A DNA stretch of 25,215 bases from the IMG/VR virus record IMGVR_UViG_2706794695_000002. The stretch is one strand, 5' to 3'. A program made the position numbers and the translations under genes. The stretch is from a virus. Lineage: Duplodnaviria; Heunggongvirae; Uroviricota; Caudoviricetes. This document shows positions 5,575 through 25,215 of the stretch, one piece after another. How positions within the stretch are numbered: the stretch's first letter is position 1; every line of letters starts with the position of its first letter. A model generated the notes under the pieces. That model searched no databases and was not told the DNA's origin. It saw only the letters and a list, made by a program, of their open reading frames with translations.

Positions 5575-5594
<20 letters not shown>

Positions 5595-6894
5595 TCTCCC
5601 GCATATTGCCAGCATGGCTTTTAATGAGCCGCTGATGCTTGAACCCGCCTATGCGCGGGTTTTCTTTTGTGCGCTTGCAGGCCAGCTTGGGATCAGCTGC
5701 CTGACGGATGCAGTATCCGGCGACAGCCTGACTGCCGGAGAGGCACCCGCGGCGCTGGCGTTATCCGGTGATGATGACGGACCACGACAGGCCCGCAGTT
5801 ATCAGGTAATGAACGGCATCGCCGTGCTGCCGGTGTCCGGCACGCTGGTCAGCCGGACGCGGGCGCTGCAGCCGTACTCGGGGATGACCGGTTACAACGG
5901 CATTATCGCCCGTCTGCAACAGGCTGCCAGCGACCCGATGGTGGACGGCATTCTGCTCGATATGGACACACCGGGCGGAATGGTGGCGGGAGCATTTGAC
6001 TGCGCTGACATCATCGCCCGTGTGCGTGACATAAAGCCGGTATGGGCGCTGGCCAATGACATGAACTGCAGCGCAGGTCAGCTGCTTGCCAGTGCCGCCT
6101 CCCGGCGTCTGGTCACGCAGACCGCCCGGACAGGCTCCATCGGCGTCATGATGGCTCACAGTAATTACGGCGCTGCACTGGAGAAACAGGGCGTGGAAAT
6201 CACGCTGATTTACAGCGGCAGCCATAAGGTGGATGGCAACCCCTACAGCCATCTACCGGATGATGTCCGGGAAACATTGCAGTCCCGGATGGATGCAACC
6301 CGCCGGATGTTTGCACAGAAGGTGTCGGCATATACCGGCCTGTCCGTGCAGGCTGTGCTGGATACCGAGGCTGCAGTGTACAGCGGTCAGGAGGCCATTG
6401 ATGCCGGACTGGCTGATGAACTTGTTAACAGTACCGATGCGATCACCGTCATGCGTGATGCACTGGATGCACGTAAATCCCGTCTCTCAGGAGGGCGAAT
6501 GACCAAAGAGACTCAATCAACAACTGTTTCAGCCACTGCTTCGCAGGCTGACGTTACTGGCGTGGTGCAAGCGACGGAGGGCGAGAACGCCAGCGCGGCG
6601 CAGCCGGACGTGAACGCGCAGATCACCGCAGCGGTTGCGGCAGAAAACAGTCGCATTATGGGGATCCTCAACTGTGAGGAGGCTCACGGACGCGAAGAAC
6701 AGGCACGCGTGCTGGCCGAAACCCCCGGTATGACCGTGGAAACGGCCCGCCGTATTCTGGCCGCAGCACCACAGAGTGCACAGACGCGCAGTGACACTGC
6801 GCTGGATCGTCTGATGCAGGGGGCACCGGCACCGCTGGCTGCAGGTAACCCGGCATCTGATGCCGTTAACGATTTGCTGAACACACCAGTGTAA
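5575..6894 (+). CDS. C: Capsid assembly protease C
   Basis: The track ORF 5440..6894 overlaps B by about 150 nt. The GTG at 5575-5577 gives MTAELRNLPHIASMAFNEPLML..., which matches the lambda gpC N-terminus as recalled (439 aa). Confidence 0.9.
6289..6894 (+). CDS. nu3: Scaffolding protein Nu3 (in-frame internal start within C)
   Basis: In-frame ATG at 6289-6291 (MDATRRMFAQKV...) shares the stop of C, at the offset expected for lambda nu3. Supported by synteny and established lambda biology, not by an independent sequence signal. Confidence 0.65.
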   Translation: MDATRRMFAQKVSAYTGLSVQAVLDTEAAVYSGQEAIDAGLADELVNSTDAITVMRDALDARKSRLSGGRMTKETQSTTVSATASQADVTGVVQATEGENASAAQPDVNAQITAAVAAENSRIMGILNCEEAHGREEQARVLAETPGMTVETARRILAAAPQSAQTRSDTALDRLMQGAPAPLAAGNPASDAVNDLLNTPV

Positions 6895-15718: not shown

Positions 15719-15789
15719 NNNNNNNNNNNNNNNNNNNNNNNNNNNNNNNNNNNNNNNNNNNNNNNNNNNNNNNNNNNNNNNNNNNNNNN
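15719..15789. other. Run of 71 N (assembly gap or masked bases) covering the K 3' end and I 5' end
   Basis: Literal n characters in the sequence. The track ORF 15290..16270 is an artifact of translating through the N run. Confidence 0.99.
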
Positions 15790-20556: not shown

Positions 20557-23500
20557 GTGAATATGGCAGTAAAGATTTCAGGTGTACTGAAAGACGGCAC
20601 AGGAAAACCGGTACAGAACTGCACAATCCAGCTGAAAGCAAAACGTAACAGCACCACGGTGGTGGTGAACACGCTGGCCTCAGAAAATCCGGATGAAGCC
20701 GGGCGTTACAGCATGGACGTTGAGTACGGTCAGTACAGCGTTATTCTGTTGGTGGAAGGATTCCCGCCGTCACATGCCGGGACCATCACCGTGTATGAAG
20801 ATTCCCGACCCGGTACGCTGAATGATTTTCTCGGTGCCATGACGGAGGATGATGCCCGTCCGGAGGCACTGCGCCGTTTTGAGCTGATGGTGGAAGAGGT
20901 GGCGCGTAACGCGTCCGCGGTGGCACAGAACACGGCAGCCGCGAAGAAATCAGCCAGCGATGCCAGCACATCAGCCCGTGAGGCGGCAACCCATGCGACT
21001 GATGCTGCAGATTCAGCACGTGCAGCCAGCACGTCAGCCGGACAGGCCGCTTCGTCGGCTCAGTCAGCGTCTTCCAGCGCAGGAACGGCATCAACAAAGG
21101 CCACTGAAGCCTCAAAAAGTGCTGCCGCTGCAGAGTCCTCAAAAAGCGCGGCGGCTACCAGTGCCGGTGCGGCGAAAACGTTAGAAACGAATGCGGCAGC
21201 GTCACAACAATCAGCAGCCACTTCTGCATCCACCGCGACCACGAAAGCGTCAGAAGCTGCCACCTCAGCCCGGGATGCGTCGGCTTCAAAAGAGGCGGCA
21301 AAATCATCAGAAACGAACGCATCATCAAGCGCCAGTAGCGCAGCTTCCTCGGCGACGGCGGCTGCAAATTCTGCGAAGGCGGCCAAAACGTCCGAGACGA
21401 ACGCCAGGTCTTCTGAAACGGCAGCGGGACAGAGTGCCTCAGCTGCGGCAGGCTCAAAAACAGCGGCTGCGTCGTCTGCCAGCGCCGCGTCAACAAGTGC
21501 CGGGCAGGCCTCAGCCAGTGCCACCGCCGCCGGAAAATCGGCAGAAAGCGCCGCATCATCCGCTTCAACAGCCACAACGAAGGCTGGCGAAGCCACTGAG
21601 CAGGCCACGGCAGCAGCGAGGTCAGCTTCCGCAGCGAAGACATCCGAAACGAACGCGAAAGCGTCGGAAACCCGTGCAGAATCCTCAAAAACGGCTGCCG
21701 CATCGTCCGCCAGTTCGGCGGCGTCATCGGCATCATCGGCGTCTGCTTCAAAAGATGAGGCGACCAGACAGGCGTCAGCAGCGAAGGGCAGCGCCACGAC
21801 GGCATCCACGAAGGCGACAGAGGCTGCTGGTAGTGCGACGGCAGCAGCTNNNNNNNNNNNNNNNNNNNNNNNNNNNNNNNNNNNNNNNNNNNNNNNNNNN
21901 NNNNNNNNNNNNNNNNNNNNNNNNNNNNNNNNNNNNNNNNNNNNNNNNNNNNNNNNNNNNNNNNNNNNNNNNNNNNNNNNNNNNNNNNNNNNNNNNNNNN
22001 NNNNNNNNNNNNNNNNNNNNNNNNNNNNNNNNNNNNNNNNNNNNNNNNNNNNNNNNNNNNNNNNNNNNNNNNNNNNNNNNNNNNNNNNNNNNNNNNNNNN
22101 NNNNNNNNNNNNNNNNNNNNNNNNNNNNNNNNNNNNNNNNNNNNNNNNNNNNNNNNNNNNNNNNNNNNNNNNNNNNNNNNNNNNNNNNNNNNNNNNNNNN
22201 NNNNNNNNNNNNNNNNNNNNNNNNNNNNNNNNNNNNNNNNNNNNNNNNNNNNNNNNNNNNNNNNNCAGCGCGACCAACAGCACGTCTGAAACGCTGGCGG
22301 CAACGCCAAAGGCAGTAAAAGCAGCCAATGACAATGCTGAGAAACGTCTGCAGAAAGATCAGAACGGTGCGGATATCCCTGGCAAAGACACCTTTACGAA
22401 AAATATTGGTGCCTGCCGTGCCTTCGGTGGGTCAGTAAGCACAACAACAGGAAACTGGACGACTGCACAGTTTATCGAGTGGCTGGATTCTCAGGGAGCA
22501 TTTAACCATCCATACTGGATGTGCAAGGGTTCCTGGTCTTATGGCAATAATAAAATCATTACTGATACTGGCTGCGGTAATATTCATCTCGCCGGAGCTG
22601 TCATTGAAGTAATGGGGATAAAGTCAGCGATGACGATCCGCATTACCACTCCGACCACATCCAGCGGTGGCGGAACAACCAACGCCCAGTTTACCTATAT
22701 TAATCACGGAACAGATTATTCACCTGGCTGGCGAAGGGACTATAACTCCAGAAATAAGCCAACGGCATCAGAGATCGGGGCGCTACCGTCAGGTGGAACA
22801 GCAGTATCATCAGTTAATCTGGCTTCAAAAGGTCGGGTAGCCGCGCTGACAGACAATACGCAGGGGGCAGCAGGTCTTGAGTTATACGAGGTGTATAACA
22901 ACGGATATCCAACAGCGTATGGAAATATCATTCACCTGAAAGGGATGACAGCCGTTGGCGAAGGTGAGTTACTCATCGGCTGGAGTGGTACAAGCGGTGC
23001 TCATGCTCCGGCATTTATTCGTTCACGACGGGATACGACCGACGCAAACTGGTCGCCGTGGGCGCAGCTTTACACCTCGGCTCATCCTCCTGCAGAGTTT
23101 TATCCAGTCGGTGCACCAATCCCGTGGCCATCAGATACCGTTCCGTCTGGTTATGCCCTGATGCAGGGGCAGACTTTTGACAAATCTGCTTACCCGAAAC
23201 TTGCAGCCGCTTATCCGTCAGGCGTGATCCCTGATATGCGTGGCTGGACGATTAAGGGCAAGCCCGCCAGTGGTCGTGCCGTATTGTCTCAGGAACAGGA
23301 TGGCATTAAATCGCACACCCACAGCGCCAGCGCATCCAGTACGGATTTGGGGACGAAAACCACATCGTCGTTTGATTACGGCACTAAATCCACGAATAAC
23401 ACCGGGGCGCATACGCACAGTCTGAGCGGCTCTACAAGTTCAGCTGGGGCCCACCAACATAGTCAGACTGGGCCCAGAACGAATAGCGGGAGTCAACCTA

Positions 23501-23802
23501 CTGGAATGTTTCCGGCAGGGAGTACTCAAGTTAGCGGGACTAATCAGGTTGGTATCAGTGGCTCATTAACCAGTGGCACCTCCCAATGGGTAGGTAAATC
23601 ATCTTCAGAAGGAAACCATACACACTCACTGTCCGGCACAGCAGCATCTGCGGGTGCACACGCGCATACTGTCGGTATTGGTGCTCATACGCACTCTGTT
23701 GCGATTGGTTCACATGGACACACCATCACCGTTAACGCTGCTGGTAACGCGGAAAACACCGTCAAAAACATCGCATTTAACTATATTGTGAGGCTCGCAT
23801 AA
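20557..23802 (+). CDS. stf: Side tail fibre protein Stf (apparently one uninterrupted frame; interior interrupted by an N run)
   Basis: Track ORF. The N-terminal part has a long Ala/Ser/Thr-rich repeat shaft (repeated ...AAKTSETNA...-type units). The C-terminal part has His-x-His repeats (GAHTHS, GAHQHS, GNHTHS, GAHAHT, GAHTHS, GSHGHT) and ends ...[11 protein letters not shown], as in lambda Stf and T4 gp37-type fibres as recalled. The true length is unknown because of the gap. Confidence 0.9.
21850..22265. other. Run of 416 N inside the stf repeat region (assembly gap)
   Basis: Literal n characters. The surrounding sequence is highly repetitive Ala/Ser/Thr-coding DNA, which typically collapses in short-read assembly. 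Confidence 0.99.
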
Positions 23803-24383
23803 TGGCATTCAGAATGAGTGAACAAGCACGGACCATAAAAATTTATAACCTGCTGGCCGGAACTAATGAATTTATTGGTGAAGGTGACGCATATATTCCG
23901 CCTCATACAGGTCTGCCTGCAAACAGTACCGATATTGCACCGCCAGATATTCCGGCTGGTTTCGTGGCTGTTTTCAACAGTGATGAGTCATCGTGGCATC
24001 TCGTTGAAGATCATCGGGGTAAAACGGTTTATGACGTGGCTTCCGGCGACGCGTTATTTATTTCTGAACTCGGCTCATTACCGGAAAATGTCACCTGGTT
24101 ATCCCCGGAAGGGGAGTTTCAGAAGTGGAACGGCACAGCCTGGGTGAAGGATACGGAAGCAGAAAAACTGTTCCGGATCCGGGAGGCGGAAGAAACAAAA
24201 AACAGCCTGATGCAGGTAGCCAGTGAGCATATAGCGCCGCTTCAGGATGCTGTGGATCTGGAGATCGCAACGGAGAAAGAAACCTTGTTGCTGGAAGCTT
24301 GGAAAAAGTATCGGGTGTTGCTGAACCGTGTTGATACATCAACTGCACCGGATATTGAATGGCCAGTAGCACCTATAGGGTAA
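23802..24383 (+). CDS. tfa: Tail fibre assembly protein Tfa
   Basis: 193-aa track ORF ([44 protein letters not shown]...) matching lambda Tfa as recalled. Its start overlaps the stf stop (TAATG). Confidence 0.95.
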
Positions 24384-24475
24384 ATTCGTAATGATTACCT
24401 AAATACGTTATTCTTTTGTTAAAAAAGTGATTTTGCTATAGGTAGGGAGTATGTTCTTGGATTAAGAATAAAAAA

Positions 24476-24500
24476 TCGCCATGAAAGAGCTTCATGGCGA
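24476..24500 (-). terminator. Candidate rho-independent terminator on the minus strand
   Basis: TCGCCATGAA-AGAGC-TTCATGGCGA is a perfect 10-bp inverted repeat. On the + strand it is preceded by AATAAAAAA, so on the minus strand the hairpin is followed by TTTTTTATT. There is no T-run after it on the + strand. Confidence 0.45.
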
Positions 24501-25132
24501 GTACATAAACGTACAAAATGTGATGAAAGTAGAGTGGCGTAAGCCACTATATTAAGATATGACAATAGCGAAGAAAAGTAAATAACATTTTATGGACGTT
24601 TAATTGTTAATTATAAAAACTAGAGTGCCCGATATTGTTTATCTTGCTTTAAAATAATGTACTCAAACCAAATTTTTGAGCTAAAAGCTCAAATAATATA
24701 AATGCAATAATAATGTTTAATAAGACAATTAGCTTGCTTTGTATTTTCATTTCGGAATACTGTTAAGTAACTTTGATGACCCTAACAATAGATCGGAATT
24801 TTCTTAGAGTCAATGGTCACTGTTTTTGCTTGCAAAGCAAATGTTTTGGTGGTTATAAGTCGTCTTAATATAGTCACGCATGCAACTTGTTCCATGCGGA
24901 GATTAAAGATTGGAATATAACGCGAAGATGGAATTAAATTACATTTGCAATAATTAATTTATTATTACTCAATAATTACCGATATTATTATTGTAAATTA
25001 ATCATTAGAATGCAAAAAGAAATGTAACGGCAAAATAAGAGGACGATAGCTGAGAAAAAAGCGTGCTTTCCCAATCTGGGGCAAATCACGTCTGAATGAC
25101 ACCTGAAAACAGGTGGTAGCCTCAAGAAGGCT

Positions 25133-25215
25133 GGTGATGCTGCCAACTTACTGATTTAGTGTATGATGGTGTTTTTGAGGTGCTCCAGTGGCTTCTGTTT
25201 CTATCAGCTGTCCCT
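25133..25215 (+). mobile_element. End of an IS1 insertion sequence (terminal inverted repeat and start of insA); the element continues past the window
   Basis: GGTGATGCTGCCAACTTACTGATTTAGTGTATGATGGTGTTTTTGAGGTGCTCCAGTGGCTTCTGTTTCTATCAGCTGTCCCT matches the IS1 insA-proximal end as I recall it. There is an abrupt change from AT-rich spacer to IS1 sequence at 25133. Confidence 0.85.
25188..25215 (+). CDS. insA: IS1 InsA, first 9 codons only (truncated by the window edge)
   Basis: GTG GCT TCT GTT TCT ATC AGC TGT CCC translates to (M)ASVSISCP, the InsA N-terminus as recalled. Confidence 0.7.

Follow-up and report, generated by a model that had tools for sequence, protein, structure and literature searches.

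The virus record IMGVR_UViG_2706794695_000002 (Caudoviricetes) comprises a stretch of 25,215 nucleotides, referred to here as the window, and all positions given below are those of this whole stretch unless a relative is named. Our study concerns the 749 bp at 24384-25132, which lie between the stop codon of the gene tfa and the left inverted repeat (25133) of the insertion sequence IS1. According to our analysis, the AT-rich DNA that follows tfa is most likely a small prophage cargo unit encoding a 33-residue membrane protein related to YncL, with the remainder consisting of junction debris cut by IS1. The upstream anchor of this unit is tfa itself (23802..24383, plus strand), which encodes a tail fibre assembly protein of 193 aa and was identified by its open reading frame (ORF), by the RefSeq annotation of the identical gene in relatives, and by the Pfam family Caudo_TAP on the same product. 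It is followed by a 578-bp AT-rich module (24384..24961; 30% G+C; not assigned to a strand), found at 78-100% identity after tfa. The minus strand of this module carries a promoter-like site, the 33-aa ORF (24649..24750, stop codon included), and a structured 3’ block of 96 nt (24465..24560). Beyond the module lie 86 bp of junction DNA (24962..25047), an 85-bp stump of a fossil right attachment site (attR; 25048..25132, plus strand), and the left end of IS1 (25133..25215, plus strand).

The G+C content is 31.5% at 24384-25132 and 29.4% at 24384-25047, as opposed to 55.4% in the remainder of the window, and the lowest single 60-nt lines of the region contain 18-23%. These values bear out the drop in composition after tfa described in a previous sequence-only reading of this DNA. 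That reading had also pointed to the absence of any ORF of at least 60 aa on either strand, which is correct, the longest ORF of the region being one of 48 aa; however, 77% of composition-matched shuffles of the 749 bp likewise lack such an ORF, and its absence is for this reason uninformative. The claim that the short ORFs look random was wrong, since it overlooked the 33-aa minus-strand ORF at 24750..24649, which has both family homology and purifying selection. Family profile scans of the short ORFs that we tested gave YncL as the sole match. Three other candidates were rejected as genes. The minus-strand ORF of 37 aa at 24895..24782 is called as a hypothetical gene in phage PhiR70_1, and its frame is broken by indels of net +2 in the divergent lineage described below; the ORF of 52 aa at 24988..25146 (annotated as 55 aa in phage ev099) is not a conserved unit because it straddles the junction between class-specific DNA and a shared arm and is cut by IS1; and the ORF of 48 aa at 24565..24419 reads through a terminator.

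The identification of the 33-aa ORF (MKIQSKLIVLLNIIIAFILFELLAQKFGLSTLF) as a putative YncL-family single-helix membrane protein is based on profiles, BLASTP, hhalign, and the ratio of non-synonymous to synonymous divergence (dN/dS). In the NCBIfam scan its only match was NF000537, “stress response membrane protein YncL” (E=1.3e-5, 25 bits), with residues 1-28 placed on model positions 1-28 of 30, and none of the seven controls (six shuffles and the reversed sequence) matched this model. BLASTP against YncL of E. coli K-12 (MNVSSRTVVLINFFAAVGLFTLISMRFGWFI; YNCL_ECOLI) produced a gap-free alignment of 28 residues with 11 identities and 18 positives (E=2e-7), the profile-profile comparison with hhalign gave a probability of 89.9% over 29 columns, and a weak precomputed Pfam match to PF28073 (YncL) is recorded for the same product in a protein collection. 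All the YncL-conserved positions are shared in the gap-free alignment of residues 1-28, namely Ser5, the basic residue 6, Asn12, Leu19-Phe20, Leu22, the basic residue 26, and Phe27-Gly28, and every one of them is invariant among the three prophage variants. Among approximately 15 billion predicted proteins the exact peptide falls in an unnamed cluster of two members. A tblastn search of phages with the peptide produced no hit, probably owing to the low-complexity filter. A homologue search with a frameshifted variant of 43 aa returned near-identical sequences only, and our literature search found no paper containing the peptide string or describing a prophage paralogue of YncL.

Selection on this ORF was examined with the lineage represented by the relatives L008 and L038. 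Most copies of the unit are 95-100% identical to one another; this lineage is only 78.5% identical in DNA and is therefore divergent enough to ask what is constrained. The ORF of the divergent copy keeps its length and frame without any indel and carries five mostly conservative replacements, while the non-coding flanks have several indels. The Nei-Gojobori method gave 11 synonymous differences in 19.7 sites and 7 non-synonymous differences in 79.3 sites (56% and 9% of the respective sites), which corresponds to a synonymous divergence (dS) of ~1.0, a non-synonymous divergence (dN) of ~0.09, and a dN/dS of ~0.09; by our own count, the differences at the three codon positions are 7:1:11. A ratio of this size together with a preserved frame is characteristic of a gene that is translated and subject to purifying selection.

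The signals that surround the ORF are arranged along the same strand. A consensus scan predicted a sigma-70-like promoter at 24813-24785, with the -35 hexamer TTGACT (24813-24808), a 17-nt spacer, and the -10 hexamer TATTGT (24790-24785), from which transcription would start near 24778. The -35 hexamer is invariant in 32 of the 34 distinct variants, and the -10 hexamer of the divergent copy has a single change (TATCGT) with the spacer length kept. At the opposite end is a perfect hairpin with a 10-bp stem (24476-24485/24491-24500) followed on the minus strand by TTTTTT; it had been called a minus-strand terminator from the letters alone, and our analysis confirms it as such. Promoter-like site, ORF, and terminator are collinear on the minus strand. 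The ORF start and IS1 are 383 bp apart, with IS1 on the upstream side and outside the 578-bp module, so that the module is intact.

The most conserved part of the module is the 3’ block, which is ~9% divergent in a copy that is 21.5% divergent overall, compared with ~19% for the ORF. On the minus strand it folds into a 6-bp hairpin (24533-24548), a single-stranded stretch of 18 nt (24515-24532), a 4-bp mini-hairpin (24501-24514), and the terminator (24476-24500) with its U6 tail, at -27.1 kcal/mol and z=-6.4. The first of these elements is the 6-bp stem with a GTAA loop reported earlier, whose existence we confirm and whose position we correct from 24531-24546. Across 10 distinct variants of the block, 98% of the cells are paired, and each of the four one-sided stem changes is compatible with wobble pairing in minus-strand RNA, whereas three of them would break plus-strand pairs. 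On the plus strand, a 24-aa ORF (24481..24555) overlaps the block and was also rejected: by our own reading of the variable columns its changes are mostly non-synonymous and include frameshift variants, so that it evolves as non-coding DNA.

These characteristics might also indicate that the 3’ block is the main product of the locus, that is, a small RNA (sRNA) of the Hfq type that is either transcribed independently, from a promoter of its own, or processed out of the 3’ untranslated region (UTR), with the ORF being secondary or the locus having a dual function; such an account is compatible with a protein-coding unit. Its layout is that of an Hfq-type sRNA, in which a stem-loop and a single-stranded A/U-rich stretch come before a Rho-independent terminator with a U tail, and the Salmonella yncL transcript was itself first catalogued as the sRNA STnc1110 (PMC5437024). 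We nevertheless regard this account as unlikely in view of three results. First, the Rfam scan of the region, taken to E=10, yielded only chance-level matches (MicC, E=0.93; Esr41, E=4.7; and two snoRNA matches), with none at E<0.9 outside tfa; the only significant family is IS009, matched with 157 bits at the 3’ end of tfa (24200-24343). Second, inspection of the sequence just upstream of the block revealed no convincing or conserved promoter. Third, the block almost never occurs apart from the ORF, since 816 of the 828 matches to the unit span at least 80% of it. The earlier proposal of a small RNA or regulatory locus is accordingly narrowed to a possibility for this block, one that no Rfam family match accompanies. 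Given that the block has no Rfam family, is almost never found without the ORF, and overlaps a plus-strand ORF that looks non-coding, we read it, on the basis of its sequence, as the functional 3’ UTR of a small-protein mRNA and possibly as the source of a 3’-derived sRNA. Pairing of the single-stranded stretch with ompC was considered and rejected, as only an unconvincing 8-mer around the start codon was seen by eye.

It is important to note that several results weigh against the interpretation of this locus as an expressed unit for a YncL-related protein. The three natural variants score 25.0, 23.5, and 22.5 bits on NF000537 (E from 1e-5 to 7.5e-5), all of them below the cut-off of 35 bits for this model, on which K-12 YncL scores 68.6 bits, and our own Pfam scan of the ORF produced no match. 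A hydrophobic query of 33 aa has low statistical power, and a scan of 1.84 billion representatives gave significant hits only to the peptide and to one frameshifted variant. Most of the evidence for selection comes from a single divergent lineage and from 18 substitutions. Neither variant has a Shine-Dalgarno sequence ahead of the ATG of the ORF. The promoter matches the consensus at 9 of 12 positions, and matches of this quality were found 5 times against 3.6 expected in shuffles; because they are not enriched, the promoter at 24813-24785 is a prediction only. Finally, the stems of the 3’ block contain no compensatory double changes among the 10 distinct variants, which means that its structure is not proven by covariation, a point that counts against an sRNA as well. 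With regard to the family assignment, the sub-cut-off scores taken together with the E-values, the clean controls, and the hhalign probability of 89.9% support distant homology and a paralogue rather than a YncL equivalog. The ORF is not filed as YncL itself because it falls below the curated threshold and has a different genomic context; sequence comparison makes its predicted product a new paralogue, distantly related to YncL.

A further explanation is that the locus is a type I toxin-antitoxin system, in which the hydrophobic peptide would be a membrane-depolarising toxin kept in check by an antisense RNA from the plus strand. The small hydrophobic product and long UTR would suit such a system, the missing Shine-Dalgarno sequence could mean tight translational control, and it has been reported that production of YncL lowers membrane potential and viability (PMC12542507). 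The expected antisense gene might be sought at a plus-strand promoter-like site at 24559-24588 that is directed into the ORF, but this site is weak, lies in a poorly conserved stretch, and is not followed by a plus-strand terminator. The sole plus-strand hairpin (24675-24693) is the 7-bp inverted repeat of the sequence-only reading, which exists, though not at 24670-24688 where that reading had placed it; it falls within the 33-aa ORF and is absent from the divergent copy. The long-range pairing between the 5’ and 3’ ends predicted in a 316-nt fold of the mRNA was likewise rejected, as a comparison of the 5’ leaders shows it to be lost in that copy. Moreover, the papers on YncL consulted here (PMC12542507, PMC10470546) describe no antitoxin. 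A type I toxin-antitoxin system is not supported by any conserved antisense element, and we consider it very unlikely.

The distribution of the unit was determined in complete E. coli genomes and in phages. Full-length copies of the whole region, ~99% identical, were found in 280 complete chromosomes of E. coli and partial ones in 1343; the region is also present in the three phages mEp332, PhiR70_1, and ev099 (four records); a permissive blastn search against phages returned only the same four records. Among the matches listed, the RefSeq records have no annotated feature under the match, the sole phage exception noted being the call of the unrelated 37-aa ORF in PhiR70_1. The sequence-only reading had proposed that its ideas would fail if the region aligned from end to end with known intergenic DNA and had no conserved structure. 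In agreement with the first part, the region does align end to end with unannotated intergenic DNA of mEp332, ev099, and PhiR70_1; contrary to the second, a conserved coding sequence and a conserved structure are present. The partial matches divide the region into one module made of its bases 1-578 (24384-24961) and another made of its bases 665-749 (25048-25132). The first module stands directly 3’ of tfa in 56 of the 57 loci checked, and tfa is truncated in the remaining one. What follows the module differs: 29 loci are of the fossil attR class, like the window itself, and 10 of these contain IS1; 21 have a 100-bp 3’ remnant of another tfa allele and then, for example, ydfJ, and 3 have sitABCD. 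The unit itself was present in 15% of the complete E. coli genomes (828 of 5426), with up to four copies per genome, always on the chromosome and never on a plasmid, and it was not found in two scans of the species-representative genomes of GTDB. It is missing after the tail-fibre genes of the relatives L005 and L006.

Two observations concern the DNA on the downstream side of the module in relatives. Remnants of the 3’ ends of other tfa alleles are stacked there on the same strand (L004, ~5590-5690 and 6333-6421; L008, 4546-4645); they are scars of repeated replacement of the tail-fibre cassette, and the Rfam family “IS009” corresponds to nothing more than the conserved 3’ end of tfa. In addition, some prophages carry sitABCD, an operon for an iron/manganese transporter, on the opposite strand directly after the module (L008, 4843-8536; L009, 4781-8230), in one case with an efflux gene of the major facilitator superfamily; this operon represents a second type of cargo found in this position.

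The possibility that the stretch is non-functional, decaying b-region or junction DNA, young and hitch-hiking with tfa, with the 33-aa ORF arising by chance, has to be judged against these data. Copies that are mostly 95-100% identical point to recent divergence, annotation pipelines leave the stretch empty, the absence of long ORFs is at chance level, the ORF has no Shine-Dalgarno sequence, and the older tfa remnants nearby indicate that the area gathers recombination scars. However, three observations make such decay improbable to a high degree. First, divergence in the 78.5% lineage is very uneven, being high at the synonymous sites of the ORF (56%) and low both at its non-synonymous sites (9%) and in the 3’ block (~9%). 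Second, the ORF matches one specific family that none of the shuffled controls matches. Third, promoter-like site, ORF, and terminator follow one another on one strand.

The ~170 bp that follow the module consist of the 86 bp of class-specific, very AT-rich junction DNA at 24962-25047, which is assigned to no strand and contains the AT-rich inverted repeats I1-I3, and the 85-bp attR stump; homology with the other two contexts of the module ends at 24961. The stump represents the first 85 bp of a 213-bp, P-arm-like segment that is shared by the right ends of lambdoid prophages beside zinT/serU and beside uspF. In relatives without IS1, this 213-bp segment leads into the final 60 nt of the tRNA-Ser(CGA) gene serU, from the anticodon stem to CCA, and then by ~278 bp of the serU-yodB intergenic region; for example, positions 5862-6199 of L001 (mEp332) correspond to K-12 positions 2043527-2043190 at 96.7% identity. 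The 269 bp downstream of the tRNA fragment are present in 5405 of the 5426 genomes. The serU core is missing from the lineage of the window; the relatives L001-L003, which lack IS1, contain it, and L005 has it at its prophage end. Past the captured DNA, the relatives have an AraC-family gene, fragments of insertion sequences, and then either a live int/xis or an attR at ybhB-bioA. The fossil attR is also found in the b region of functional phages (L001, 5665-6199, from mEp332; L002; L003; L007), and together with the captured chromosomal DNA it is evidence for the footprint of an aberrant excision of an ancestor from serU.

It had also been suggested that the stretch is what remains of an attachment site or junction. 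The suggestion applies only to the last 85 bp, which are homologous to the prophage-side arm of attR at serU and uspF/ttcA and in relatives lead into the 3’ fragment of serU and the chromosome, but as an account of the whole region it is refuted and the least probable of those considered here, since that segment accounts for only 85 of the 749 bp, the lineage of the window lacks the core, the live boundary lies further on, past the AraC-type gene and the insertion sequence fragments, at int/xis or ybhB-bioA, and the other 578 bp are found in contexts unrelated to attachment sites.

The same 213-bp arm was observed at two chromosomal sites, serU (L005, 4001-4250) and the uspF/ttcA side (L006, 4001-4215), and the two sequences part just past the shared core GGTCTCGAAA(A/C)CCG. 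From these sequences, the arrangement suggests a single type of integrase with two targets, serU and uspF/ttcA. The IS1 at the end of the window was identified by its sequence, with the left inverted repeat (IRL) GGTGATGCTGCCAACTTACTGAT, and by the RefSeq annotation of 79 complete genomes, which places IS1A at exactly this junction; the element runs past the end of the window. A comparison of the relatives L064 (6134-6901) and L003 (6750-7299) shows that IS1 replaces 550 bp, which include the remainder of the arm, the serU core, and captured DNA. IS1 ends 206 bp upstream of a gene for an AraC-family regulator similar to YdeO and GadX, and the IS1-associated deletion may alter expression of this AraC-type gene.

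Elsewhere in the window there are two runs of N, one of 71 bases (15719-15789) and one of 416 bases (21850-22265). The ORF of the side tail fibre (20557-23802) is not readable through because the 416-base run falls within its Ala/Ser-rich repeat region. In the relative L001, the minus strand of the side tail fibre gene matches the Rfam family isrG at 1593-1759 with 32.8 bits against a gathering score of 100; this match lies in a GC-rich repeat and is probably a compositional artefact.

Juhala and Hendrix are said to have defined, in 2000, the morons of lambdoid phages, with bor and lom of lambda and gp15 of HK97 among the examples. The unit described here fits a phage moron: the signals predicted around it would be its own, its composition is foreign, and some related prophages carry it while others do not. 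The G+C content of 24384-24961 is 30% as opposed to 55%, and the unit is present or absent at the same position among similar lambdoid prophage ends; with regard to the signals, the terminator is strong and conserved, and the hexamers of the 9/12 promoter match are conserved, although such matches are no commoner than in shuffles. In our judgment, the AT-rich stretch is probably a moron that carries a minus-strand unit for a YncL-paralogue protein with a structured 3’ UTR, the rest being junction DNA. The sequence-only reading had mentioned, as one possibility, an H-NS-silenced moron that was decayed or cut by IS1: the moron stands, and the decay does not, given that the transcription unit is intact and IS1 lies outside the module. 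The unit would have been acquired horizontally as a self-contained element placed between tfa and the prophage end, where it would run on the minus strand, convergent with the late operon of the phage. Transcription from the predicted sigma-70-type promoter (24813-24785) would give an RNA of ~310 nt that ends at the terminator (24500-24476) and would encode a 33-residue protein with one hydrophobic helix, followed by the long, conserved, structured 3’ UTR. If the comparison with YncL holds, this protein would most likely insert into the inner membrane of the lysogen and either lower the membrane potential or modulate a membrane partner, an action that would change host physiology or phage sensitivity. 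The 3’ block would most likely stabilise the mRNA or bind Hfq, and it may release a 3’-derived sRNA.

A more far-reaching version would make this a dual-function locus of lysogenic conversion, in which a lowered membrane potential would block superinfection or lead to a tolerant state while the 3’ block would act as an Hfq-dependent sRNA that reprograms host mRNAs. We consider this version speculative and quite unlikely; if true, it would represent a phage-spread coding sRNA that is unannotated in approximately one-seventh of E. coli genomes.

The probable moron with its YncL paralogue matters on several grounds of its own. Few small membrane proteins of bacteria have an emerging function, and YncL is among them (PMC12542507); a phage-borne paralogue carried on tail-fibre cassettes would show that temperate phages spread small membrane proteins horizontally and would offer a natural presence/absence system for testing their function. 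The locus also reveals a gap in annotation, since the gene is found in 828 of 5426 complete E. coli genomes with no RefSeq feature at it among the matches listed. Lastly, the fossil attR provides a clean example of how cargo enters phage b regions through aberrant excision.

Among known systems, the b region of lambda with its attP and attR occupies the same place, between tfa and the attachment site, and the last 85 bp of our region derive from an attR arm. In contrast to lambda, the attachment remnant belongs to a serU/ttcA-type integrase module and is a fossil truncated by IS1; there is no homology to b-region genes, and the four phage records that match are all relatives with the same module. 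The type I toxins Hok, Ldr, TisB, ShoB, and ZorO resemble the predicted product in being small hydrophobic inner-membrane peptides whose mRNAs are long relative to the ORF. They differ from it in that we found here neither a conserved antisense RNA gene or fold-back nor any sequence similarity to them, the sole profile match being YncL.

YncL of E. coli K-12 (b4598, 31 aa) is the closest counterpart of the predicted protein. It has been reported that YncL is induced by heat shock and minimal medium, that its production leads to sublethal membrane depolarisation and nucleoid condensation (PMC12542507), and that it is a substrate of RseP in vivo (PMC10470546). Both proteins have ~30 aa, a short basic N-terminus, one hydrophobic helix with Asn12, and a basic residue followed by Phe-Gly at 26-28, and both come from a short stand-alone transcript, as predicted in the case of the prophage gene. 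They differ in that the prophage protein reaches 25 bits against the 35-bit cut-off and in their loci: K-12 yncL is chromosomal (1517099-1517194, between patD and ortT), whereas the prophage gene lies beside tfa. The chromosomal yncL has the Shine-Dalgarno sequence AGGTGG, which the prophage gene lacks, and on inspection the promoters and 3’ UTRs show no resemblance. The prophage paralogue is found only in E. coli prophages and not in the species-representative genomes searched. STnc1110, the Salmonella “coding sRNA” that carries the yncL orthologue (PMC5437024), is similar in being a short YncL-family transcript with the appearance of an sRNA; it is chromosomal and sigma-S dependent, whereas the copy described here is in a prophage and has no Rfam match.

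With respect to the morons of lambdoid phages, the present unit is distinct in its cargo of only 33 aa, its long conserved 3’ UTR, and its orientation, convergent to the late operon, and its expression in the lysogen is a prediction. What it shares with them is the general plan, namely an extra gene of odd base composition and patchy occurrence, with its own promoter-like site and terminator, placed between conserved modules near the tail-fibre/attachment end of the genome.

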